From positions 30,001-62,000 of the forward strand of contig JAJRZD010000020.1 in NCBI GenBank assembly GCA_024275415.1: a DNA stretch of 32,000 nt. Reading direction: 5' to 3'. This stretch comes from an archaeon (GTDB lineage: Archaea > Asgardarchaeota > Thorarchaeia > Thorarchaeales > Thorarchaeaceae). The notes under the pieces were generated by a model, which searched no databases, had not been told where the DNA came from, and saw nothing but the letters and a program-made list of their open reading frames with translations. A program made the translations under genes and the position numbers. Shown in pieces: positions 15,230 through 31,512 of the stretch (position 1 is its first letter; the number at the start of each line of letters is the position of its first letter).

Positions 15230-16066
15230 CTACTCTCTTGGTACACTGCTAACCAAGTCACGATGAAGACGTTTCACTTGCGAGAGTACTAGACGTTCAC
15301 CATTGACAAGCACCTCGACATTGATGTGCTCTTTAAGACCGCTTGTAGATAGCTTTTTCATGAGAACACCTTCGACTTGGAACACACCAGCGGGGTTATC
15401 CATAGCTACTGTAATCCGCATGGGTTTGTCAGTTCCTTTCTCGAGGTGGACATCTTGAATAGCCATAGCACTTACGCTATGAATGTCAACCTTGCCTTTA
15501 TGAAAGGGAACCATTGTGCGCCCCTTGCTCATATCCGAGCCATCTCCAATCTTTGTGACACCAGCCTCAAAGGTCAGACATTGAATGTCATCATCATGAG
15601 AGTAGATTCCGTGGAGGATGGCCGAGAGAATATCAGTGGACTTCCCAGGGTCATCATAGATGTGATCCAGCTTCTTCTCCAGAATGGGAGCTGCAAGATG
15701 TATTGCGGCCTGGTAGTGCTCTTTCCGGTGTATCACCATTCCAAGATCGTGAAGATATGTCGATGAAAGAACAACCAGTCGTGCGTCATCGGAGTCGCCG
15801 ATACCTTCTGCGACGATATTGGGTTTGAACGTTTCGTCTAGGATGTCAAAGGCACGTAATGCATTCCAAGTTGCCACTTCAGCATGGACATGCCCATGAT
15901 CAGTGTACCCTAATCGTGCGACAGCCATCCGATTTGCTGTGCGCAGATAGGATTGGACGCGCGGAGAACCGCTGAGATATTGGTACATCTCAAGGGATTT
16001 CGTGTTCGGCTTCAACAGTGTGCGAGGGCTTACTTTCTCTCGATTGAAGGGTTCGGTGGAATTCAT
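15230..16066 (-). CDS. HD-domain metal-dependent phosphohydrolase (archaeal COG3294-like)
   Basis: Motifs LGYTDHG-x-VH, YLHDLG, H-x3-H, HD, and IGDGSDM-x-KGR. Confidence 0.85.
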   Translation of the reverse strand: MNSTEPFNREKVSPRTLLKPNTKSLEMYQYLSGSPRVQSYLRTANRMAVARLGYTDHGHVHAEVATWNALRAFDILDETFKPNIVAEGIGDSDDARLVVLSSTYLHDLGMVIHRKEHYQAAIHLAAPILEKKLDHIYDDPGKSTDILSAILHGIYSHDDDIQCLTFEAGVTKIGDGSDMSKGRTMVPFHKGKVDIHSVSAMAIQDVHLEKGTDKPMRITVAMDNPAGVFQVEGVLMKKLSTSGLKEHINVEVLVNGERLVLSQVKRLHRDLVSSVPRE

Positions 16067-16128: not shown

Positions 16129-19086
16129 CTATATTTCGCCAGCTTCTTCCTGGAAGGTCAGAAGAATCCTATCAGTTGCTGTTGTGGCTTTCTTGATAGT
16201 CTTGAGATAATCCTGACGCGACTTCTCAAACGCAGCACGGCTTATCTTTTGCTTCTTCTTTCTCAGGAGGAGCTGACGAAGACCAGCCTTGGCACCCTCG
16301 ATTTTCTCGTCTTGAAGTTCGAGTTGAGATATGAGATCGCGATACCGTGCACCATGTTGAATCAAGCTCTCCTTTAGTTTCGGTAGAGCTTTGTCCACCT
16401 CATTCATCTGATTCTTGATATCTCGTTCTCGGATCATGAACTCTTTCTTAGTGACCTTGCCTTTTCTCCTTGCAGATTCGAGCTTTTCCAACTCAAGGTT
16501 CAACGAAACCTTCTTTGAATAGGTCTTTGCAAATTCTGACAGGAGCTCGATAGGTGCACCAGCCTGTCGGGTTTCTACGTGGCTGTCAGTTCGGTCTTCT
16601 GCACCGGATGATGATTCGATAAAGCCCCATCGCCGATATGCCACAAAGATTGACGCAATGAAACCAATAATCATTGCAAAGACAACAGGACGTGATGCAG
16701 AACCGATTGATATGCTATATACTAACACAATCTGAGGTGGGTTATACCTAGTTGTGTTGTACTTGGTAAACCGAAGAGTGGCATCAAACACACCATGGAG
16801 CAACCGATAATCCCCACTCACAGATTTTACATCAATGGCTGGAGAGAGAACGACATCTACAACATGGGTCTGGACAAGAGTGTCGCCGAATGTCCCCATG
16901 GGTAGTGATAGGATGGTTCCGCTGGTGTTTGTTTGAATATAAGATTCCATCTGCACGGTATAGTCAATATAGAACGTGTAAGAGTAGCCAGGGAGAAAAC
17001 CTTTCTCTCCAAATCGATCTTTCTGAAGGTTAATCTGAAGCTTGAGTGTGGAGTTCAAATCCCACTCACCAGTGGGTTGCGAGTTCGCAAGAATACCGAC
17101 CTCATCGAATATCTTCACGGATGGGACATATTCAGGCAACGTGAAGAGGAGGATGCTCTCTTTTGCAGGACCTATGTTTCTCATAGATATCTCTTCATGA
17201 AAACGCATGTATCCCCAAGGGTCTATAGTAACCCTTGTGTACCTGTCCGCGAGAATCAATGGGGTGTATGAGGTCATCTCAAAGCTGAAAGACTCACTCT
17301 GCATGGGGAGCAAGTTATGCCAGACGCCTTCTGGAGTGTCAGTAAGGAGTGTATCACCACTCCTAAAGGCAAGTATCAGCTGAGCGGTTCTGAGTACGTA
17401 GGGAACCATTGGATATTTCATGAACTCGACTTCATAGGTATTCTCATCAAAATCAATGAGTGTATGAAGTGAGTGGAATTGGAAGGTTATTGTGAATCGA
17501 TAGGTGCGACCGTAATCAACAGCTTGGAACATATACACGCGCCAGTGATAGAGTCCCTGATAGTCCTCAAGTCGGACTATTTCGAGCGCGTTCTCGTCAG
17601 AATCGGCAGCACTTATGTCTAATAGGCGGTCACCATATTCTGCGGGGAGGAATATCTCGAGGGCATTGATAGGTGCAGAGCCGTTGTTCCTCACATCATA
17701 AACATCACGGACCTCAGTGGTATGGTAAAACTTTGTGGCCACGGTTCGTTCCACATCAAGTTTCATCCCTAGGAGTGGGAGGTATGGACGGTCAATGACA
17801 ATCTCTACGGACTGAACTGTCGTCACATTCGAGGGGTCTGTTGCGTTGACGAGGATAGTATGAGTGCCTTCATCTATTTCTGTAAGGTCAAGTGACGTTT
17901 CCCAAAGACCCGTCTGGAAGTCATAAGTTATCTCTGTCCATTCGTCATCATCCAATCGATAGAAGGTTCTTCGAACCCATGAGTTGTCTGACACGTTCAG
18001 AGAAAGATCTGCCACATATCCAAGCGTGGCATTTGCTTCAGGACTGTTGATCTGAATAGTGGGGCCTTCATTTGGAGTGAAAGAAGTCATAGGAGTTGCA
18101 GCCCATGCGGTATGTTGTGCCGGCAACTCAGAGATATCCTCACTACTGCCATACATGAGCATGAACGGATATGACAGATCAGTTGCATTGGTTAGAGGGA
18201 TATCATCAGGATCTGTGCTATTCATCAGAATGAAGTACTCGAGTTGTGTTTTCGTCCCATCGTCGCTTCCGTCTGCAGAGATAATCCTACTCTGGTTTGC
18301 ATCGGGCTGGTGTTGAAAGGTACTAATTCCATGTTCATCGCTGTATTCGATGTCGCTTGCAAGAGCTGGATTGCTGAATTCGTTGTTGATACGGGTAACA
18401 GTTATGATATACTCCAAATCCTGCCCATACATCGGATGCGATGGTTCGTTGTATGCCTCCTCAGCAGGAATGATAAAGTGCTTTGTTTCACCAATCCTCA
18501 TCCCAATGATGGCATCCTTGTAACCTTGTAAGAGACTCTCGTCACCGATAGGGGTTGTCGAATCATCATTCGGGACATTACCTTCTTCAACAAGAGTGCC
18601 ATTCCTCAGTTTGAGGATGTAGTGAACCGTAACTACATCAGATGCCTTGACTCTGGTATAGGTCTGATGAGGAGTCCCAGGGGCATAGCCGAAAATCAAA
18701 TCCGAATTGTTTAGACCATCTGACCGGAAATCATCGGTATAGTTCTTCCATCCTAGAGCGATCCAACCAGATGTCGCAGCCTCAAGGCCCACAAAAAGGA
18801 CTGACGAATTATGTTCCATGTACACGGTGATACCGGTCACAGGATCTGTGTAGGACGACGAATATTCCGTAGGGTCAATAATCCCATCAGCACGGCCAAA
18901 ATGTTCGTCAACATAGGGGATGGATAGATTGACAGAAGATTCAGCTAGCGCTATTGATGGGGCAGGATCAGATATCGTTGTGCTTCTGTCCCATCCATCA
19001 TTATCTAGGGTAAGTAGCATGACACTGTTGCTAAGTAGAAGTGTCAATAGTATGAGAATCGCTGCTCTTTGTTTAAACAGACCCAA
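16129..19086 (-). CDS. Multidomain membrane protein: signal/TM + DOMON-like domain with inserted FKBP PPIase + Ig-like + ribophorin I (OST1)-like luminal domain + TM + helical cytoplasmic tail
   Basis: TTG start after SD GGTGATC. DOMON-like motifs GWIALGW and DLIFGY; FKBP motifs VTVHY and GYKDAIIGMRIGETKHFIIPAEEAY; Ig-like PTIQINSP...EGTHTILVNATD; ribophorin-like IDPWGYMRFHEEI...GYSYTFYIDY; TM near aa 800; charged helical C-terminus. Confidence 0.8.
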   Translation of the reverse strand: MGLFKQRAAILILLTLLLSNSVMLLTLDNDGWDRSTTISDPAPSIALAESSVNLSIPYVDEHFGRADGIIDPTEYSSSYTDPVTGITVYMEHNSSVLFVGLEAATSGWIALGWKNYTDDFRSDGLNNSDLIFGYAPGTPHQTYTRVKASDVVTVHYILKLRNGTLVEEGNVPNDDSTTPIGDESLLQGYKDAIIGMRIGETKHFIIPAEEAYNEPSHPMYGQDLEYIITVTRINNEFSNPALASDIEYSDEHGISTFQHQPDANQSRIISADGSDDGTKTQLEYFILMNSTDPDDIPLTNATDLSYPFMLMYGSSEDISELPAQHTAWAATPMTSFTPNEGPTIQINSPEANATLGYVADLSLNVSDNSWVRRTFYRLDDDEWTEITYDFQTGLWETSLDLTEIDEGTHTILVNATDPSNVTTVQSVEIVIDRPYLPLLGMKLDVERTVATKFYHTTEVRDVYDVRNNGSAPINALEIFLPAEYGDRLLDISAADSDENALEIVRLEDYQGLYHWRVYMFQAVDYGRTYRFTITFQFHSLHTLIDFDENTYEVEFMKYPMVPYVLRTAQLILAFRSGDTLLTDTPEGVWHNLLPMQSESFSFEMTSYTPLILADRYTRVTIDPWGYMRFHEEISMRNIGPAKESILLFTLPEYVPSVKIFDEVGILANSQPTGEWDLNSTLKLQINLQKDRFGEKGFLPGYSYTFYIDYTVQMESYIQTNTSGTILSLPMGTFGDTLVQTHVVDVVLSPAIDVKSVSGDYRLLHGVFDATLRFTKYNTTRYNPPQIVLVYSISIGSASRPVVFAMIIGFIASIFVAYRRWGFIESSSGAEDRTDSHVETRQAGAPIELLSEFAKTYSKKVSLNLELEKLESARRKGKVTKKEFMIRERDIKNQMNEVDKALPKLKESLIQHGARYRDLISQLELQDEKIEGAKAGLRQLLLRKKKQKISRAAFEKSRQDYLKTIKKATTATDRILLTFQEEAGEI

Positions 19087-19268
19087 TACAGATCACCGTT
19101 TATTATTCTGATAGATAATGGTCTAGTTTGCCAGACCACGAACAATGCGCACGAATTTCGAGTCCGTTAAAATAGTTTCCGTTAGATTAGGCATTGTACC
19201 TAAAAGCAGCAATACCTAAAAACCGTTAAATGGTGTTCGAATCAGGTGTGTGAGAGGTCGAATCACAA

Positions 19269-20285
19269 ATGCTCTTGATGCTGATGGTTGCACTGGTTTC
19301 CTTTGTTATCGTCGTGATGTTCATGCCAGGAACGATAAGGATGCTCCGAGAGAAGGATATCGTTGGCATCGATGTGCACAAACACAATAAACCTGAGGTG
19401 CCCAAAGGCGGAGGTTTCGTGTTTCTCTTTGCAATAGTGGCATCAATTCTAGTAGTCATTGGTGTAACAACATTCCAAGAGGGCAACGTGAACCCAGGAC
19501 TTCTAGCAGCATTGGTTTCAATACTGATGGCGGGGATGATAGGCCTTCTAGATGACACCTTCGATTTCAGGAATCGCACAAAGGTCGTACTTCCACTTGT
19601 CGCTTCCATACCAATCATTGCAATGCAAGTAGGCACAACAAAGATGGACATCCCTCTCATTGGCACTATTGATTTAGGAATAATATACCCCCTGATTGTA
19701 GTCCCATTGATGATGACGTTCATTATCGATTCCACGAACATGTACGGAGGAATGAATGGACTAGAATCAATCTTGGCTGCGATAAATGCCTCTGCGATTG
19801 TGATGTTTCTCGTCTTGAAGACAGTACTGTTTCAGGACACAATCTCCAGTGGACAAGCAGATGCAGGAATTGTCGCAGGAGCACTATTGGGGGCTTCAAT
19901 CGGATTTCTCATCTTCAACTGGTATCCGGCAAAGGTGCTCCCCGGGGATGTAGGAAGACTTGCACTCGGTGCAACTATTGCTTCTGCATTGATCTTGGGG
20001 AACATGGATCGCCTCGCGGTGATGCTCTATGCACCGTTCATGTTCAATTTCTTGCTCTATCTCATATATCGTGTTCATGTGAAAAGAACAGGAAAAGAAT
20101 GGACCAAATTCGCAAAGCCAAGAGAGGATGGCACTCTTGAGGTTGTGGGCCCCTACACAATGTATTGGCTGTTGCCACATCTCTCGAAGAAGGTAACTGA
20201 AAGATTGAACGTGGTGATGCTTGCGCTCCTTCAGGCATTGCTTGCCTATGGTACAATCTATTTGATATTATTCCCGGTATTCTGA
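19269..20285 (+). CDS. aglH: UDP-GlcNAc:polyprenol-phosphate GlcNAc-1-phosphate transferase (AglH/Alg7/DPAGT1, MraY/GPT family)
   Basis: Motifs GIDVHK-x-NKPEVPKGGG, IGLLDD, NMYGGMNGLE and FNWYPAKVLPGDVG, with about 10 TM segments. Confidence 0.9.
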   Translation: MLLMLMVALVSFVIVVMFMPGTIRMLREKDIVGIDVHKHNKPEVPKGGGFVFLFAIVASILVVIGVTTFQEGNVNPGLLAALVSILMAGMIGLLDDTFDFRNRTKVVLPLVASIPIIAMQVGTTKMDIPLIGTIDLGIIYPLIVVPLMMTFIIDSTNMYGGMNGLESILAAINASAIVMFLVLKTVLFQDTISSGQADAGIVAGALLGASIGFLIFNWYPAKVLPGDVGRLALGATIASALILGNMDRLAVMLYAPFMFNFLLYLIYRVHVKRTGKEWTKFAKPREDGTLEVVGPYTMYWLLPHLSKKVTERLNVVMLALLQALLAYGTIYLILFPVF

Positions 20286-20304: not shown

Positions 20305-21357
20305 TTATTGAATCTTTGTTGGAAGATACTCGTCAACTACAAAGTCGATTCCAAAACGGCTGAAGGCCTGCTGCTCAGCTTTCTTTCGAAGTCGCCTGAA
20401 GGATTCTATTGCGGATTGCCAGTCATCGGATAAATAACGCGAGTCTTTGGACAGTTCGTCTAATCTCTTAAGATCACGATTATTCATGTCCTCACAGGGA
20501 AGATTGTATCTCACAATATCATCAGCATTCACCCCAATCCATTCAGCTGTCGGGATTGCTAAATCGCGGATGTGTGCTGCATTAGCACTGCCTGCAATGA
20601 TGACCCTTGCGATGTGCATCCCCCACGGGTCGCCATCGGTGAATATCTTCACAGGCAAGTGCAGTTCGTCGTGCAATCGTCGCATCAATCTTCGTGTCGA
20701 TCGAGGTGCCTGGCCACCCAGATGCACCAAAATACAGTCGAATCGTTCCCAGCATCGGGTTTCGATGAGTCGGGAGAACATTCCCCCGGACTCGACAGCA
20801 AGAATGAGCTTGGCATCCGTCCTTACAGGAGATGCCGAGAGTAGGGCAGGACCTATCGGCAATCCATCGGGACTTATCGTGAGGTCAACTTCCTTGTCTT
20901 CATAGCCTTTGACAGTGTAACGCATGATAACTTTCCCGTAGATAGAAGAATGCTCTTCCGGGAAGAAACCCAATGACTCACGGGGATATTCAATCAGGGC
21001 TTCAAGGTCAGATAATAATCTGTCCGATTCAGCTTGGTCTTTGAATCTGACGCCGAACGCCTCACTTGAATAGTAGAGGTCTCTTAGAGAGCTTGTCCTA
21101 CCGGACTCAAGAAGTCGCTTCGAGAATGAAGCGATCCACATTAGCTGCATGAAGCTCCGAATATGCTTGCTATTTGACGAGTCGCGGGTAGTCCTAGAGT
21201 CCCCAAGGATGAATTGCTCGGTCTGCTCGTCAAACACTATGTTTTCTGTACTCCGAGCAGGTATCTCAATTCTTGGAAAATGTCCATCCTCAATTGATGA
21301 CAGAATCTTTTTCCCCAGCTCAGTCAAACTCTTGATAGGGTCGCTCATATCAGACAT
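20305..21357 (-). CDS. top6A: DNA topoisomerase VI subunit A
   Basis: The catalytic Tyr motif SLRDLYY, Toprim AVESGG, DGDPWG and KAEQQAF. Confidence 0.97.
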   Translation of the reverse strand: MSDMSDPIKSLTELGKKILSSIEDGHFPRIEIPARSTENIVFDEQTEQFILGDSRTTRDSSNSKHIRSFMQLMWIASFSKRLLESGRTSSLRDLYYSSEAFGVRFKDQAESDRLLSDLEALIEYPRESLGFFPEEHSSIYGKVIMRYTVKGYEDKEVDLTISPDGLPIGPALLSASPVRTDAKLILAVESGGMFSRLIETRCWERFDCILVHLGGQAPRSTRRLMRRLHDELHLPVKIFTDGDPWGMHIARVIIAGSANAAHIRDLAIPTAEWIGVNADDIVRYNLPCEDMNNRDLKRLDELSKDSRYLSDDWQSAIESFRRLRKKAEQQAFSRFGIDFVVDEYLPTKIQ

Positions 21358-22876
21358 CGCTATCTACCTCGAAAAGTTCGTTAATCATCCGTGATGTGTC
21401 AGGAATATTGTCAACCCCTGCAACCTCACTACTGAACTTGGCCAGCAGGTTGAAAAGCCTTGAGAACTCCTTCAACTTCCGTCTAGAATGTAAAGCACGC
21501 TTCTTCCCCTCAGAAAACACTTTCAGTTTTCGGCCAAGCTCACGATACAATGATAGTATCTCAGAGGTAATTGAACTGACTGATGTGATGGATTGCTTCC
21601 CAGCCGCTGAATAAGGAACCCTAATGGAGCAGAAGTGTGTGAAGATAGCTACGCCACTGATTTCAGGAGGCTTGTATCGCGCCCAAGGGATGCGCTTGAG
21701 TGTCTTCGCAAAGACATCATCAGTTGAGTCATAGAGCAGCGGTACACGATTGGCAAACCTGAAGAGATGTGGAATGTCGGATTGTTCGAATGCATCACTA
21801 ATTGCCAACACACCTTCCACGATATACGGGAAACCATCCCATTCGAGGGGGCCTCGTTGGGAATAACCAATCACTGTGGCGTTGAATTCTTTCCGAATCG
21901 CATTAAAGAACGACTCCTTTCCGACAGGACTCAGGCAAGTCGCACTTGGTTTCCCAAACTTGTCATACTTGCGGAGAGAATTGCCTAGATATGAGAGCGC
22001 TTCTCTATCAAGAGACCCTATTGTCGCTCGCGGATCCATCCGGATGAAATTGAGAAATTTTTCAGCGGTCTTATGCCCTAGCTGCTGAAAGGAACCAACC
22101 AGAAATTCGTGAAGACGCAGATCCGGATTCTTTGCAGCAAGACGTCTGATTAGTTCAAGATCTGCTGCATGGGGATGTGGCAACGAGTCCACTGGTAGTG
22201 AAGGGATCTTCTTGGTGAACCCTCCGAAAGTGTACCGTTCTGTATCATCCAATGATAGAGTGATCCGCGCATGGGGAGTGGAAATGCCAGTTAGTCGCAA
22301 ATATTCGATGACACGCTCGCGAGATCGTTTCAAATCACCATTCAATGTGATGTGTACTGTGGTACCTCGCTCTTTCCGTTTCAACGGGTTCGACGATTTG
22401 ACGATAGGTGAGTTTGATTCGATATCGATGTACACACTGTATTCGTTCCCTTCGTTCTGAGCGGTTTTTGTGTGTATTACAGCTGGTGTACCTGTCGAGA
22501 TCTGTCCATAGAGTACCGCCATTGTGACCCCAAGCCCAAAGGTGCCTCGCCTCTGTCTAGAACTATATTTGTTGCCATACAACACCTTGCCAAACGCGTT
22601 TGGAACGTTCTCATCGGGCACCCCAGTACCATTGTCAGATACCGACACGGTGCAGGTGCGTCCAAGCTCGGATTGGATTGTTACATCTACGGTAGGAAGC
22701 ACTCTTGCTTCCTCACATGAATCAAGGCTGTTCTCTACGAGTTCTCGCACTGTCGTGTACAGCGACTGGGTCGGGTTCTCAAAGCCAGCCATCTGTCGGT
22801 TCCTGTAGAAGAATTCGGCTGGTGATATCCCTCTGAAGTTTCCAGACGCTGAACCAGTCATAGTGTTCAATCTCAT
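21350..22876 (-). CDS. top6B: DNA topoisomerase VI subunit B
   Basis: SPAEFF, GHKL motifs ELVENSLDSC, DNGTG and RGTFGLG, followed by PHP, H2TH and RFANRVPLLY. Confidence 0.97.
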   Translation of the reverse strand: MRLNTMTGSASGNFRGISPAEFFYRNRQMAGFENPTQSLYTTVRELVENSLDSCEEARVLPTVDVTIQSELGRTCTVSVSDNGTGVPDENVPNAFGKVLYGNKYSSRQRRGTFGLGVTMAVLYGQISTGTPAVIHTKTAQNEGNEYSVYIDIESNSPIVKSSNPLKRKERGTTVHITLNGDLKRSRERVIEYLRLTGISTPHARITLSLDDTERYTFGGFTKKIPSLPVDSLPHPHAADLELIRRLAAKNPDLRLHEFLVGSFQQLGHKTAEKFLNFIRMDPRATIGSLDREALSYLGNSLRKYDKFGKPSATCLSPVGKESFFNAIRKEFNATVIGYSQRGPLEWDGFPYIVEGVLAISDAFEQSDIPHLFRFANRVPLLYDSTDDVFAKTLKRIPWARYKPPEISGVAIFTHFCSIRVPYSAAGKQSITSVSSITSEILSLYRELGRKLKVFSEGKKRALHSRRKLKEFSRLFNLLAKFSSEVAGVDNIPDTSRMINELFEVDSDV

Positions 22877-22916
22877 ATCATAAGGATGATATTTTCAGGC
22901 CGCGTATTACGCTTGG

Positions 22917-23486
22917 TCAGTAGTCGCTCATCCAAAGCTCGGATTTGATTCGGTTAATCTCACGGCGACTTCTCTCAAGGTATTTGTAGACAGAGCCATG
23001 TGGAGCGCCATCAATCAACATGGTCACAGCCCGAGTTGCATAATCAAGCTGTGGATCATAACCTATGATAGCAACTGTCCGCCCATACACCGAAACTTTG
23101 GTTTCTGTAACCTCCTCAATCACCCGACGAGTACGGCCGTTCTCGCCAATTATCCTACCTGCCACCCGTTTCAGCTGAGATGGAGAAGTGCCAACAAACT
23201 CTCTAAGAGAGATGATTACTAGGCGGGCGTCCTCATCAATCAGAGACAGAGCACGTTTGGGACTAAAACCTCGTGCCATTGCCTGAATGATGTCCCGTGC
23301 TTTCCAAAGGAGCACATGATCGTCGGCATTCGCAGAACCCCTAATAGTGACGACACCATCTGAGCCGACCTCAATCTTAGTGTTCGTTAGTTGTTCGACT
23401 CGTTTGCGGACACGTCCATTTCGCCCCACTATGACTGCAATACGTTCCTCGGGAACACGAATTACTTTATGAAACATCATTTTCAA
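22917..23486 (-). CDS. dim2: KH-domain rRNA-processing protein (Dim2/Pno1-like)
   Basis: Two GxxG loops (IVGRNG, IIGENG), ARGFSP and GAPHGSVY, in conserved synteny with RIO1. The start may be ATG 23480. Confidence 0.9.
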   Translation of the reverse strand: MKMMFHKVIRVPEERIAVIVGRNGRVRKRVEQLTNTKIEVGSDGVVTIRGSANADDHVLLWKARDIIQAMARGFSPKRALSLIDEDARLVIISLREFVGTSPSQLKRVAGRIIGENGRTRRVIEEVTETKVSVYGRTVAIIGYDPQLDYATRAVTMLIDGAPHGSVYKYLERSRREINRIKSELWMSDY

Positions 23487-24271
23487 GAATCACCTGAGTT
23501 AAGAATCTCGGAGGTCAGGTCTTGGGGGTCCTGGGTATCCACTCCAAGTTTATTGAAGAAGTGTGTTATGTTTTTAATATCACGATAGAGGTATCTCGAA
23601 GCATTATCGTGGTCACGGACAAGAGATTGTGATACATCAATGAAAACAGGTTCGCCCACCCAGAGAATGTTATACTCGCTGAGGTCTGCATGCACAAGCT
23701 TTGCTTTTGTATAGCCCATCTTAATCATCTTGATGATGTCACGATAGGTCGTTTCTGGCGAAGGTATTTCCACGTTCTTGATCAATGGCGCTGCAGTCGC
23801 ATTTTTTTGGTCGCCAATGAATTCCATTATCAGCACATTCCGATATATGGCAACAGGCTTAGGTACGCGCACACCAGCATCATAATAGCGAGCAAGGTTC
23901 TTGTATTCCTTCATGGCCCATTGTGGCACAAGAACCCTATTCTTTCGCCCCACACGTTTGAAACGAGGGTCTCCAACCATATATTCCCTCATAAAATCGG
24001 TTTCTGCTGTCGAAACACGGTATATCTTCACAGCAACCGATTTGTTATCAGTGGTTTCTCCACGATACACATTTGCTTCTTTCCCTGTACTTATGACACC
24101 ATGAACTGCATTGATGACACCCCTGTTGAAAAGACGAAAGATGACCTTGAGTGTTGGAGGGTCAATTACGCCCTCAACAACCTTGAATTCGTCATCATCA
24201 CGGCGACGCTTTGACCTGCGACTGTCTAGTTGGTCTTCGATCTTGCGCCGTTGCTTTTCAGCTCTCTTCAA
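23483..24271 (-). CDS. rio1: RIO1 atypical serine kinase
   Basis: Motifs ISTGKEANVY, AVKIYR, KEYKNL, LVHADLSEYNIL and IDVSQS. Confidence 0.96.
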   Translation of the reverse strand: MKRAEKQRRKIEDQLDSRRSKRRRDDDEFKVVEGVIDPPTLKVIFRLFNRGVINAVHGVISTGKEANVYRGETTDNKSVAVKIYRVSTAETDFMREYMVGDPRFKRVGRKNRVLVPQWAMKEYKNLARYYDAGVRVPKPVAIYRNVLIMEFIGDQKNATAAPLIKNVEIPSPETTYRDIIKMIKMGYTKAKLVHADLSEYNILWVGEPVFIDVSQSLVRDHDNASRYLYRDIKNITHFFNKLGVDTQDPQDLTSEILNSGDS

Positions 24272-24349
24272 TTCAGTTTATCACCTGTCAGATAGGATAC
24301 TATCCTTTCAAGAGAATGTACCTATGAAGAAAAAGCTTGAGATTGTTAT

Positions 24350-24679
24350 CTAAAACATCTTGAGAATCTTATGTCGGTTCAGCCAATCAAGCTCGTTGTT
24401 TCGATACCTATAGACGACATCGCATTTCTGATCAGACTGGAACTCCCACGGAACTACAAGAACCGTATCACCAATTCGCATCCAGACTCGCTTTTTCATT
24501 CGACCGGGTATCCTCCCAATCCGGATATTGCCATCTTCGCAACGTATCCTGACACGGTCATGTCCAAGCATCTGGATGATGATTCCAAAAAGCTCACCAT
24601 TATCTCGATTAGGTGTCCGTACACGGACTAATTCTCCATCGGGTCCTATTACTGGTCCATCTCGTCTTCGTCGTGACAA
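24350..24679 (-). CDS. eif1a: Translation initiation factor aIF-1A
   Basis: Motifs QMLGHDRVRIRCEDG, RIPGRMKKRVWMRIGD-x-VLVVPWEFQ and DVVYRY. TTG start after GGAGG. Confidence 0.97.
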   Translation of the reverse strand: MSRRRRDGPVIGPDGELVRVRTPNRDNGELFGIIIQMLGHDRVRIRCEDGNIRIGRIPGRMKKRVWMRIGDTVLVVPWEFQSDQKCDVVYRYRNNELDWLNRHKILKMF

Positions 24680-24782
24680 AATAATCCTCCAATCAATGCT
24701 AGGGGTGCCCTAGCCGCTATGTCTGGAAGTACTACCAAGCATTTAAGACTAACGAAATCGCCACCTTACTGTGGCTCACCCC

Positions 24783-25847
24783 TTATTCGGGGACAGGATA
24801 TAGCTTGTTATTGTGCTCAATGAGATAGATAGAGTCACCCGACACATACTGTCGGATCGATTCGTCATCAAGCTCGAGTATTTCGAATGTGTCCGATGCC
24901 ATTACCTGAAGAGGCTTCCCATAGACATTAGAAACGACAGTGAACTCGCGTTTGGAATCTCCCTCTGTGATGAATCTGATAGTCTTCCATTTCGAGCTCT
25001 TTGGAGAAACAGTGAACCTATGCCGTCTTACAAGGTCATAGCAGGTAAGTCCGCCCTTCCCCATCTTCAGAACTCGACATGGATTGCCTACAACCTCAAT
25101 GAAGTCCCCTGGCAAGAATTGAGGGAGTCGAAGAAGAATCGTTGTTCTGTACTTCTTCTTGCCGCCCCTGTCTTGGGAATATAACTTGAAATTCTCCTTT
25201 CTGCTCGCTAGGAATTGTGCCTCAACCTCTTCGGCAATCTTACGACAGAGTAAATCGGATCCGAGGTACAGATCCAAACCAAATTTTGTTTCATCTATCT
25301 GTAAAATGAAAGCACGAGTGTCTTTCCCGTATTCGGCAATAGTGCGTTCTTTGGCAATCTCAAGTATCTGATCCTGCTCTTCTTTTGTCAACGGCCGTTC
25401 ATCAGCCCGAATCTGTAGGGTCGCCTCATAATAACCGCCGCTCATCATTGAGCACGAATCGCAGGACATGTAGGAATACCGTATCTCTGTGGGGTATTCT
25501 TCTGTATGTGGTTCTAGGTCTGGAGCGGACTTTCCTGTCACAACTAGGCGTACCAACAGAACTCTATCCAATCGGTTCTCTTCAATAATATCCACACTCA
25601 GTCCCGGTACCAATGGGGTTATTTCCATATCTAGAAGTATGTCAATCTGTTCTGCCCTCTGTGCATCTTTGTTTTGTGATGACAGGGTCTTCCATCCGCC
25701 AGGAATTTTCACGGAGCCACACTTTTTGCAAATTGTTATAGACAGCGGAGAACTCACTTTGACTAGTGGATGCTCGTTGTTGTAACAATTCTGGCAGAGA
25801 CCATCCAGAATAGATGGCTCTCCACACAAATAGCAAGGAGATCTCAT
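24783..25847 (-). CDS. nmd3: NMD3 family large-subunit ribosome biogenesis factor
   Basis: Four CxxC pairs (CYLC, CQNC, CKKC, CDSC), followed by GGYYEATLQIR. The start is ATG 25847 or GTG 25856. Confidence 0.9.
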   Translation of the reverse strand: MRSPCYLCGEPSILDGLCQNCYNNEHPLVKVSSPLSITICKKCGSVKIPGGWKTLSSQNKDAQRAEQIDILLDMEITPLVPGLSVDIIEENRLDRVLLVRLVVTGKSAPDLEPHTEEYPTEIRYSYMSCDSCSMMSGGYYEATLQIRADERPLTKEEQDQILEIAKERTIAEYGKDTRAFILQIDETKFGLDLYLGSDLLCRKIAEEVEAQFLASRKENFKLYSQDRGGKKKYRTTILLRLPQFLPGDFIEVVGNPCRVLKMGKGGLTCYDLVRRHRFTVSPKSSKWKTIRFITEGDSKREFTVVSNVYGKPLQVMASDTFEILELDDESIRQYVSGDSIYLIEHNNKLYPVPE

Positions 25848-25946
25848 CGCGTCCACTGGAGTTTTGGACGTCTGAGATACTTATGAATTCAGTTGTAGGA
25901 GATGACGACTATATTCGCGAGAGTAGGGAACAGAAAAGTGTCAGTG

Positions 25947-27482: not shown

Positions 27483-28517
27483 CTAGAAGAAATCAGACAA
27501 TGAGCTCTGTTGTACCCCCTCGCGTTCCGCTTCACGCTTCTGTATTAAGCGCTCAAGTGCAGCAGTCACACGGTTCGCACTAAAATCATGCTCTGAGCAG
27601 AGAATCATTGTGACCTCTTCGACGTTAGGATCTTCCCAAGAAAACGGTTTAACCTCCATATTGGGAGGGTCTAAGAATATCTTACGGATTTCCTCAAACG
27701 GGAAATCAATCGTGTATTTCCCTGATTCAATGATTCCTTCAATAGAACCAAACTCACGAATGAGTTTGAGCGCAGTCTTAGGACCTACCCGAGGAACCTT
27801 GTCATTGTAATCCGTTCCAACAAGTAAGGCGATATCAATCAGCTGCTCTCGTGAGATGCCTAACAATCTCAAGTTCAGGTCTAAATCAATCAATTCCGGA
27901 GAGATTATCTTGAAGGTATTAGTTCGTGAAACGCGTCTTTTGCCTGAAACTGAAAGGTTCCGTATCATTCTTGGACAATTATATAGGAGAGAGTCATTGT
28001 CTTGGCTTGCACTAGCATACACCATGTTCTCCCTAGCCATCTGTGCTGCCAGCGCTTCACCCTCAGACGGAGCTTGTATCCATGGGATACCCATTGCGGT
28101 CAACAGCCGCTTGCTCTCGTCAATCATCCCAGTGGTGAGTGTGGAGCTTGCCTGTGCTGCTTTTCGCGCATCATCGATTCGTCCTTCTTTCTTAGCAAGC
28201 TGCCATTCTTCAAATGCAGCTTCACGAACCGCTCGCCGCCTCTCAACTTCTCCAGACTTGAGTTTGGGCGGTTCACCATCAAAGACATAAACTGGAAGTA
28301 TCCCTTGTTCGAGAAGGTTCATATTGCGATAGAATATCCCGCTTAGGTGGCTAGTGACTCTTCCTTTCCGATCCATGAGGGGAGTTCCATCACGCTGTCT
28401 GATAGTGGAGAGAAATTGGTACAGGGTATTGAACGCATCTATAGCAACCTTCTTCCCTGCGAGATCAGATATTGTTATTTTCTGAGCTTGTATGATGTCA
28501 GAGAGTTTTGTCCCCAT
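27483..28517 (-). CDS. fen: Flap endonuclease 1
   Basis: MGTKL, AIDAFNTLYQFL, SHLSG, VFDG, APSEGEA, SQD-x-DSLL, GTDYN, GPKTA, and a C-terminal PIP box QSSLSDFF. The likely start is ATG 28517. Confidence 0.98.
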   Translation of the reverse strand: MGTKLSDIIQAQKITISDLAGKKVAIDAFNTLYQFLSTIRQRDGTPLMDRKGRVTSHLSGIFYRNMNLLEQGILPVYVFDGEPPKLKSGEVERRRAVREAAFEEWQLAKKEGRIDDARKAAQASSTLTTGMIDESKRLLTAMGIPWIQAPSEGEALAAQMARENMVYASASQDNDSLLYNCPRMIRNLSVSGKRRVSRTNTFKIISPELIDLDLNLRLLGISREQLIDIALLVGTDYNDKVPRVGPKTALKLIREFGSIEGIIESGKYTIDFPFEEIRKIFLDPPNMEVKPFSWEDPNVEEVTMILCSEHDFSANRVTAALERLIQKREAEREGVQQSSLSDFF

Positions 28518-28670
28518 TGAATCCGCTCCAACACTCAGTAGGAGTGGTTTATCATATATCATTTGAGGAGTGCTTCCTAATGAGTACTCTTCGGTAAGTT
28601 TATAATATTCCCAAAGGTGGCGACAGGAGACCAACACCAAATATTTGGCTCTGGTGATACTTTGTCAACA

Positions 28671-29268: not shown

Positions 29269-31512
<2,244 letters not shown>

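Follow-up and report, generated by a model that had tools for sequence, protein, structure and literature searches.

An FKBP-in-DOMON extension on the OST1/ribophorin I subunit of Thorarchaeales

Gene, domain layout and ribophorin I identity

The DNA analyzed in this study is a stretch of 32,000 nucleotides (hereafter the window) that covers positions 30,001 to 62,000 of contig JAJRZD010000020.1 from assembly GCA_024275415.1 and originates from an archaeon of the family Thorarchaeaceae within the Asgard order Thorarchaeales. The window contains at positions 16129-19086 (-) the single gene of this Thorarchaeon for OST1/ribophorin I, a helper subunit of the oligosaccharyltransferase (OST) of protein N-glycosylation, here joined to a set of additional N-terminal domains. 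The gene is the sole long frame in this region, begins with a TTG start codon and encodes a protein of 985 amino acids (aa). A stop codon is located two codons 5' of the TTG, delimiting an open frame of 987 aa, and the orthologues share both the start position and the same hydrophobic N-terminal segment.

The deduced parts of the protein are all encoded on the minus strand. The chain starts with a signal peptide or signal anchor (aa 1-27; 19006..19086), which displays a basic n-region with K5/R7, a hydrophobic core and a hydropathy peak at aa 1-19. The N-terminal half of a DOMON-fold domain with a DGIIDPxEY motif (aa 49-140; 18667..18942) was assigned by hhalign and by structural comparison with VIA. 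It is followed by an FKBP-type domain of the short type without IF insert (aa 141-236; 18379..18666), which was detected by Pfam, PDB sequence searches and VIA and lies in a loop of the DOMON fold. The C-terminal DOMON-fold half (aa 237-338; 18073..18378; VIA and an ESM-Atlas cluster) and an immunoglobulin (Ig)-like Big_7 spacer (aa 339-435; 17782..18072; Pfam and VIA) complete the extension. The remainder consists of the OST1/ribophorin I extracellular body with sandwiches at aa 436-610 and 611-795 (16702..17781; Pfam, collinearity, Foldseek and VIA), a single transmembrane helix at about aa 796-822 that was located by hydropathy and is joined to an acidic linker at aa 823-842 (together 16561..16701), and a cytoplasmic basic four-helix bundle that corresponds to the ribosome-binding domain of OST1 (aa 843-985; 16132..16560; phmmer and VIA against 8WHN).

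The Pfam matches of the OST1 protein comprise FKBP_C at aa 145-228 (E 4.7e-11; 43.3 bits versus a cut-off of 21.1), Big_7 at aa 342-413 (E 2.3e-6) and Ribophorin_I (PF04597) at aa 646-749. The latter match covers profile positions 260-355 with 27.4 bits versus a cut-off of 25; it is partial and, taken alone, marginal. AlphaFold2 (AF2) models were calculated separately for the two halves of the protein, using 30 orthologues for aa 31-440 (predicted local distance difference test score, pLDDT, 86; predicted template modelling score 0.79) and 60 Asgard OST1 sequences for aa 433-985 (pLDDT 90.4). The resulting domain limits specify a DOMON-fold sandwich at about aa 53-136 and 247-336 that is interrupted by the FKBP domain at 141-237, the Ig domain at 340-434, beta-sandwiches at 441-605 and 611-792, the transmembrane helix at about 794-823 and four helices at 846-982. 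The acidic linker behind the transmembrane helix was modelled with low confidence (pLDDT <50 at 825-840) and is disordered in the model.

The OST1 protein is a type I membrane protein. Since it carries an N-terminal signal, one transmembrane helix and N-x-S/T sequons only in front of that helix, the extension and the OST1 sandwiches are located outside the cell and the four-helix bundle resides in the cytoplasm. The ectodomain contains 16 sequons, compared with 5.9 +/- 2.1 in 2000 shuffled sequences (maximum 13); 13 of its sequons are conserved in 23 or more of the 30 orthologues, and the cytosolic tail contains none. Cysteines are absent from the entire protein. The tail is basic, with 33 lysine and arginine versus 22 aspartate and glutamate residues and a net charge of +11.

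The assignment of the C-terminal half was provided by several lines of evidence. The best match of the whole protein among PDB sequences is not an FKBP but entry 8WHN, a crystal structure that represents the cytoplasmic OST1 domain of 'Ca. Prometheoarchaeum syntrophicum' MK-D1; the match covers the last 140 residues (phmmer E 2.7e-7). The modelled tail superposes on this structure with a VIA Z score of 18.5 and a root-mean-square deviation (rmsd) of 1.8 A over 141 residues. The complete model of aa 433-985 matches human RPN1 (6s7o_E) with a VIA Z score of 31.2 over 488 residues and yeast Ost1 (6c26_1) with a Z score of 27.6. In the Foldseek search with the same model, human RPN1 and yeast Ost1 chains occupy ranks 1 to 8 with E values of 3.4e-30 to 4.3e-19, the best match being human RPN1 8b6l_O (E 3.4e-30), and the next matches are integrins at 1e-8. 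Additionally, an exhaustive profile-free search of 1.8 billion representatives detected many proteins of 550-620 aa that match residues ~441-985 end to end with 21-28% identity. The plain Asgard relatives that were checked, which measure about 570 aa and whose sources name Odinarchaeia, Helarchaeota and further lineages, carry significant Pfam Ribophorin_I matches, and the motif DPWG is part of the consensus of the 60-sequence Asgard OST1 alignment. These data clearly indicate that the protein contains, in its C-terminal 550 residues, an entire equivalent of eukaryotic RPN1.

The tail domain of MK-D1 OST1 was shown to bind ribosomes in pull-down experiments (PMC11417166). By homology, the Thorarchaeal tail probably docks the translating ribosome in the same way as the Prometheoarchaeum domain.

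A first-pass annotation of this DNA, made from its letters, had described the same succession of parts (a signal or transmembrane segment, DOMON-like, FKBP, Ig-like and large beta-rich domains, a second transmembrane segment and a helical tail), and the AF2 limits agree with it to within a few residues. It had also pointed to numerous sequons, whose excess over shuffled sequences is given above, and had likened three segments of the protein to ribophorin I motifs, which segments begin with DPWG, GFLPGYSYTF and VQTHVVD and are located in or beside the Pfam Ribophorin_I match. The proposed homology to ribophorin I is borne out by the profile match, the full-length structural match and the relationship of the tails; in particular, the region of aa 440-795, on which the annotation had made its proposal depend, is similar to RPN1 and Ost1 in structure.

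The FKBP-in-DOMON extension and its distribution

The FKBP domain (model residues 111-207) was matched by VIA to SlyD 3cgm (Z 12.7) and FKBP13 2pbc (Z 11.7), and PDB sequence searches with this domain likewise returned FKBPs. The surrounding fold was identified by exhaustive VIA comparison of the model of aa 31-440. The best matches were the gamma subunits of ethylbenzene dehydrogenase (EbdC, 2ivf_C; Z 15.4) and nitrite oxidoreductase (NxrC; Z 15.1), followed by the DOMON domain of dopamine beta-hydroxylase (Z 13.1), CBM9 (1i82; Z 12.1) and the cytochrome domain of cellobiose dehydrogenase (Z 11.7). The Foldseek search of the PDB with this 410-residue model was dominated by Ig and FKBP matches, with DOMON proteins absent, and it was the exhaustive VIA comparison that resolved the assignment. 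The alignments to the DOMON superfamily run from model residue ~24 to ~308 across the FKBP insert, and the FKBP domain is therefore nested in a loop of a DOMON-fold domain. An ESM-Atlas cluster in which 100% of the members carry Pfam DOMON aligned over 163 residues (rmsd 1.8 A; query 29-310). Moreover, hhalign of the family alignment against the Pfam-DOMON protein P0261 gave a probability of 97%, and this alignment stops exactly at the insertion point GYAPGT. The Pfam profiles DOMON, EB_dh and CBM9 did not match the OST1 protein at E <= 1; Pfam DOMON matched three of the 30 orthologues weakly (best E 0.0035). The Ig domain (model residues 310-404) reached VIA Z scores of up to 13.6, with the Ig-like module of a mannanase. 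The fusion of an FKBP and a DOMON-like domain suspected in the first-pass annotation is thereby supported by Pfam, VIA, hhalign and the ESM-Atlas cluster.

The fold of the sandwich evokes ligands that are bound by other members of the superfamily. Since the best structural matches, EbdC, NxrC and the cellobiose dehydrogenase cytochrome domain, are haem b-binding DOMONs, the domain could be regarded as a haem b-binding element for extracellular electron transfer or redox reactions on the OST, and four histidines of the module are indeed conserved within the family. We consider this reading very improbable: a conserved Met/His or Met/Lys axial pair was not found, as the DOMON halves contain no conserved methionine or lysine, H62 is the only histidine shared with the sister family, and a redox role would have no link to the rest of the protein.

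The DOMON superfamily also includes the sugar-binding CBM9 proteins, which brings up the proposal of the first-pass annotation that a glycan-binding domain and a foldase might form a quality-control device on the OST. In such a case the DOMON domain would be a lectin reading the N-glycan or the lipid-linked donor and would act together with the FKBP domain as a station similar to malectin-ribophorin I or calnexin. The module carries 12 of the 16 sequons, and the OST1 gene is paired with the gene for the first enzyme of N-glycan assembly. However, the top fold matches are haem-binding DOMONs and not lectins, and of the tryptophans that might stack on sugars W108 and W328 are not kept in the sister family, where W113 is retained. 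Malectin or another recognized lectin domain gave no Pfam match at E <= 1 in the ectodomain, and a malectin-like segment has no place in it, the whole ectodomain being assigned to DOMON, FKBP, Ig or OST1 folds. To our knowledge, no glycan-trimming quality-control cycle has been described in archaea. We accordingly give this reading a low probability, albeit a higher one than the haem hypothesis; both draw their support from the modelled fold. FKBP foldases usually require a platform that holds the substrate or ligand. In our preferred reading, the DOMON sandwich would most likely play this part, much like the IF domain in SlyD or the chaperone domains in FkpA, trigger factor and PpiD, and the Ig domain would serve as a spacer for the DOMON-backed FKBP domain.

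The distribution of the fusion was determined by database searches and by screening 400 genomes of the phylum. More than 200 proteins of ~930-1010 aa match the OST1 protein with 48-72% identity over 95-100% of the query. These long relatives are named FKBP-type isomerase, Ig-like or hypothetical proteins in the databases, where they derive from Thorarchaeota metagenome-assembled genomes, and their ribophorin identity was missed. In total, 78 loci were recovered with one genome per species, including those of the founding metagenome-assembled genomes SMTZ1-45 and AB_25 and of the complete chromosome CP070658.1. Among the genomes of the same family an uninterrupted match from residue 9 or before to residue 984 or beyond is present in 68, including that of the window, and 82 of the 85 other genomes of this family have a match, those that are not full-length being pieces at contig ends. 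The sister family of the same order, represented by a single genome, contains a full-length version with 32% identity in a frame of 1034 aa. In all other Asgard families sampled, the match is limited to residues ~441-985 in frames of ~560-655 aa. Since the full-length form occurs in the family and in its sister family and only residues ~441-985 are matched elsewhere, the fusion is a trait of the order, and the plain OST1 of about 570-640 aa is the rule in the other Asgard families sampled.

These numbers also bear on the possibility that an FKBP gene was joined to the OST1 gene by an assembly or gene-calling error, and the first-pass annotation had itself raised the concern of a single-genome artefact. 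The gene forms one uninterrupted frame of 975-1010 aa in about 68 independent genomes at the species level, among them the three sources named above. This renders the explanation practically negligible, as does the nesting of the FKBP domain within a second domain, an arrangement that cannot arise by joining two genes.

A few Thorarchaeota also encode stand-alone paralogues of this module (L074 6001-7125, P0131; L075 6001-7149, P0132). Besides the DOMON, FKBP and Ig domains, they possess a further Ig/HYR-like domain, a stalk rich in Ser and Thr and a transmembrane anchor at the C-terminus and exhibit an FKBP11-like single-pass layout. These proteins were considered as donors of the module and rejected, as they branch in the tree after the split from the already-fused sister family. 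The tree suggests that they are partial duplicates of the fused gene, with the qualification that their branches are long. No further case of an FKBP domain inserted into a DOMON fold was found in the AlphaFold-DB clusters and the ESM Atlas, which is no proof of absence; the resulting lists are filled by DOMON-only or Ig-only proteins, with best TM-scores by query of 0.36-0.38. Asgard OST1 itself is well known (PMC10307638, PMC11417166). A description of the fused FKBP-in-DOMON extension was not found in the literature on Asgard or Thorarchaeota ribophorin I/OST1, FKBP and DOMON proteins, in agreement with the first-pass annotation, whose author model knew of no report on this architecture.

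Genomic neighbourhood of the OST1 gene

A divergent intergenic region of 182 bp (19087..19268, according to the ORF coordinates) separates the OST1 gene from a Glycos_transf_4 gene at 19269..20285 (+). The deduced protein belongs to the ALG7/DPAGT1/AglH type and is a homologue of UDP-GlcNAc:dolichyl-P GlcNAc-1-P transferase (Pfam E 2.1e-29), its best solved relative being human DPAGT1 (E 1.4e-19). Wherever a Thorarchaeota locus includes sequence upstream of OST1, the two genes are paired head-to-head, and the sister family shows the same arrangement. In two genomes of Asgard archaea outside the Thorarchaeota (G002 and G308), the plain OST1 gene is located 3-5 kb from an AglH-like gene. The gene order TopoVI-B, TopoVI-A, Glycos_transf_4 (divergent), OST1, a gene for a 278-aa protein and GcvP was observed in essentially all Thorarchaeota loci that are long enough to show it.

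The gene for the 278-aa protein (15230-16066 (-)) shares the strand of OST1 and lies 63 bp downstream of it, and its product is kept in nearly all Thorarchaeota loci with 65-88% identity, exceeding that of OST1 itself. The protein is soluble-looking, and its His/Asp motifs resemble those of HD phosphohydrolases; Pfam gave no match, and the only NCBIfam match, to a phosphohydrolase family, is below the threshold (E 0.039). Since this protein looks cytosolic, it was not counted as a partner of OST1.

The genome is 92.9% complete and contains one Ribophorin_I locus, one STT3/AglB gene and one OST3/6-like ORF. The latter (G000 contig C10, 22133-22447 (+)) lies in a frame of 139 aa, matches the transmembrane part of the profile and precedes the single AglB/STT3 gene by about 4 kb. 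The AglB protein (L002 1408-4170 (+)) consists of 920 aa, displays a WWDYG motif and is extended at its C-terminus by a long acidic segment.

The remaining window includes a number of eukaryote-like informational genes (20305-25856 (-), 27483-28640 (-) and 29323-31512 (+)), which encode TopoVI A and B, a PNO1/KRR1-type protein with two KH domains, a RIO1 kinase, NMD3, FEN1/XPG and a Cdc48-type AAA ATPase. A 171-aa ORF antisense to the 5' part of the Glycos_transf_4 gene (19226-19741 (-)) has no family match and is probably not a gene, and a 365-aa membrane protein (4626-5723 (-)) shows a weak match to 7TMR-DISM_7TM that is below the cut-off (E 6.6e-4).

FKBP pocket, proposed role and comparison with known systems

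The ligand pocket of the FKBP domain was mapped by a gap-free alignment to the FK1 domain of wheat FKBP73, with counts taken over the 30 orthologues. Positions are given in the numbering of FKBP12, in which the canonical pocket residues are Y26, F36, D37, F46, I56, W59, Y82 and F99. The equivalents of Y26 (Tyr), I56 (Leu), W59 (Tyr) and Y82 (Tyr) are invariant as Y156, L186, Y189 and Y212, and that of F99 is a tyrosine (Y226) in 29 of the 30 sequences. The histidine equivalent to H87 of FKBP12 is retained in 22 orthologues, and F36 is replaced by Leu, Ile or Val, remaining hydrophobic in most. No orthologue has an aspartate at D37, which is replaced by Gln (17) or Glu (13), and F46 is replaced by Ser in 26. 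The aromatic cage is under strict selection, but the catalytic efficiency of the domain is not a property that can be judged from the sequence. With respect to column conservation, the cytoplasmic tail is the most conserved part of the protein (0.81, with 36 invariant residues), the N-terminal DOMON half (0.76) is the best-conserved extracellular segment, and the FKBP domain (0.68) and the OST1 sandwiches (0.57-0.61) follow. The genome contains a second FKBP gene, which is of the cytosolic long type without signal; OST1 is therefore the only gene of the genome that encodes an FKBP with an export signal.

With moderate confidence we favour the reading that the protein is an OST subunit by which a foldase or chaperone of the ATP-independent type is tethered at the exit of the translocon, and that it represents a fused analogue of human FKBP11. 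According to this model, the tail would dock the ribosome, by analogy with MK-D1, and the transmembrane helix and the sandwiches would be placed beside AglB/STT3 at the SecY channel, as suggested by MK-D1 and the eukaryotic OST. If the tail is docked at the ribosome and the body stands beside AglB at SecY, the FKBP domain of the extension would consequently be held near the channel exit. The extension would position a prolyl isomerase or proline-binding chaperone that needs no ATP at a distance of a few nanometres from the membrane, on its outer side and over the exit, where the FKBP domain would meet nascent secreted and surface-layer (S-layer)-type chains as N-glycans are added and might bind or isomerise their prolyl bonds. 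The first-pass annotation had likewise placed a foldase next to the OST. This part of its proposal stands as the most economical reading and has a eukaryotic parallel in FKBP11 (PMC12804085), and it is weakened by the loss of the Asp37 equivalent in the family.

The same pocket residues lead to an alternative that we regard as unlikely, although more probable than the lectin reading. In this case the OST1 identity would be the same and the FKBP domain would be a non-catalytic adaptor, whose pocket would bind a fixed partner together with the DOMON domain without turnover of nascent chains; candidate partners would be a further component of the translocon or the S-layer, or else a loop of the OST1 protein itself that contains proline. 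The Gln or Glu at Asp37 and the Ser at Phe46 argue for such an adaptor, and the invariant aromatic residues fit conserved binding as well as catalysis. Moreover, the pocket of human FKBP11 is buried by CCDC134 at the translocon, the authors of that study argue against an isomerase role, and the knockout caused no glycosylation defect (PMC12804085). On the other hand, the protein of the sister family (P0126) keeps the canonical Phe-Asp at the F36-D37 positions, and no conserved neighbour presents itself as a partner candidate except the cytosolic-looking 278-aa protein. The aligned SlpA of E. coli, which we take to be a weak but real peptidyl-prolyl isomerase (PPIase), shows Ala-Glu at the same positions.

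Several points weigh against the tethered foldase that we favour. Catalysis by the FKBP domain may be weak or lost, since the positions of Asp37, Phe46 and Phe36 are changed to Gln/Glu, Ser and Leu/Ile/Val in the family, and the buried pocket of FKBP11 counts in the same direction. The N- and C-terminal halves come from separate models, which do not define how the module is oriented towards the channel. Other Asgard lineages do without the module, which is not needed for OST function as such, and the association with AglB, SecY or ribosomes in Thorarchaeota is based on homology.

In a wider sense, we tentatively suggest, as a possibility more doubtful than the tethered foldase itself, that the Thorarchaeia run a primitive co-translocational maturation in the style of the endoplasmic reticulum (ER) at the cell membrane, in which a constitutive OST subunit would combine ribosome docking, N-glycosylation and an exoplasmic station for folding help, made up of the FKBP domain and a DOMON platform that reads a ligand or glycan. 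If this is true, help with folding that is exported and bound to the translocon would have originated in Asgard archaea and would be older than any ER, in contradiction to a published conclusion. A 2024 study of this machinery reported that chaperone homologues with a signal peptide are missing from Asgard databases and inferred from this the lack of a compartment with chaperone-assisted refolding (PMC11417166), whereas a whole Asgard order possesses an exported domain of the FKBP foldase type that is joined to an OST subunit with a predicted ribosome-docking tail. Ribophorin I is moreover a eukaryotic signature protein that ties the Asgard translocon to the ER translocon. Since the ectodomain is cysteine-free and modular, PPIase, chaperone and ligand assays should be straightforward, and a comparison of Thorarchaeal with plain Asgard OST1 proteins could show the contribution of the extension.

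The Thorarchaeal protein was finally compared with known systems. The plain Asgard OST1, exemplified by the MK-D1 protein of 607 aa, shares the signal peptide, the two sandwiches, the single transmembrane helix and the basic four-helix bundle, whereas the Thorarchaeal protein adds about 400 N-terminal extracellular residues that comprise the DOMON domain with the nested FKBP domain and the Ig domain. Eukaryotic ribophorin I (RPN1 of OST-A/B, 6S7O and 8B6L; Ost1, 6C26 and 6EZN) matches the fold of the whole OST1 chain, including the metazoan-type cytosolic bundle, at an identity of 12-16%; the eukaryotic proteins lack the FKBP/DOMON/Ig extension, and most of the remaining subunits of the eukaryotic OST are missing from the archaeal complex. 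With the DOMON superfamily (PF03351) the Thorarchaeal module has in common the sandwich fold (Z 12-15) and the N-terminal motif DGxxDxxEY, but it has no direct Pfam match and no conserved haem-ligand pair and accommodates a whole FKBP domain in a loop.

Bacteria likewise combine ATP-independent PPIase-type domains with substrate-holding domains near the Sec exit, as in E. coli PpiD at SecYEG, Bacillus PrsA and the periplasmic FkpA and SurA. These foldases pair a parvulin or FKBP domain with a chaperone domain of helical structure and, unlike the Thorarchaeal OST1, are not subunits of a glycosyltransferase complex. The closest parallel is human FKBP11, a single-pass FKBP that binds ribosome-associated Sec61/OST-A translocons by a basic C-terminal helix and adjoins OST-A on the lumenal side (PMC12804085). 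Human FKBP11 (9N9J/9YGY) and the Thorarchaeal protein both display an exoplasmic FKBP domain, placed next to the OST in the one case and presumably in the other, together with one transmembrane helix and a basic cytosolic element for ribosome binding, and the FKBP folds superpose with a Z score of 10.8; a specific sequence tie beyond the FKBP family was not found between the two domains. FKBP11 is a separate protein that is recruited by substrate and has its pocket covered by CCDC134, whereas the Thorarchaeal FKBP domain is a covalent, constitutive part of OST1 and is nested in a DOMON fold. The fusion would accordingly offer a naturally occurring and genetically fixed model for glycosylation and folding at the exit of the channel, in parallel to the recently solved FKBP11-bound human translocon.

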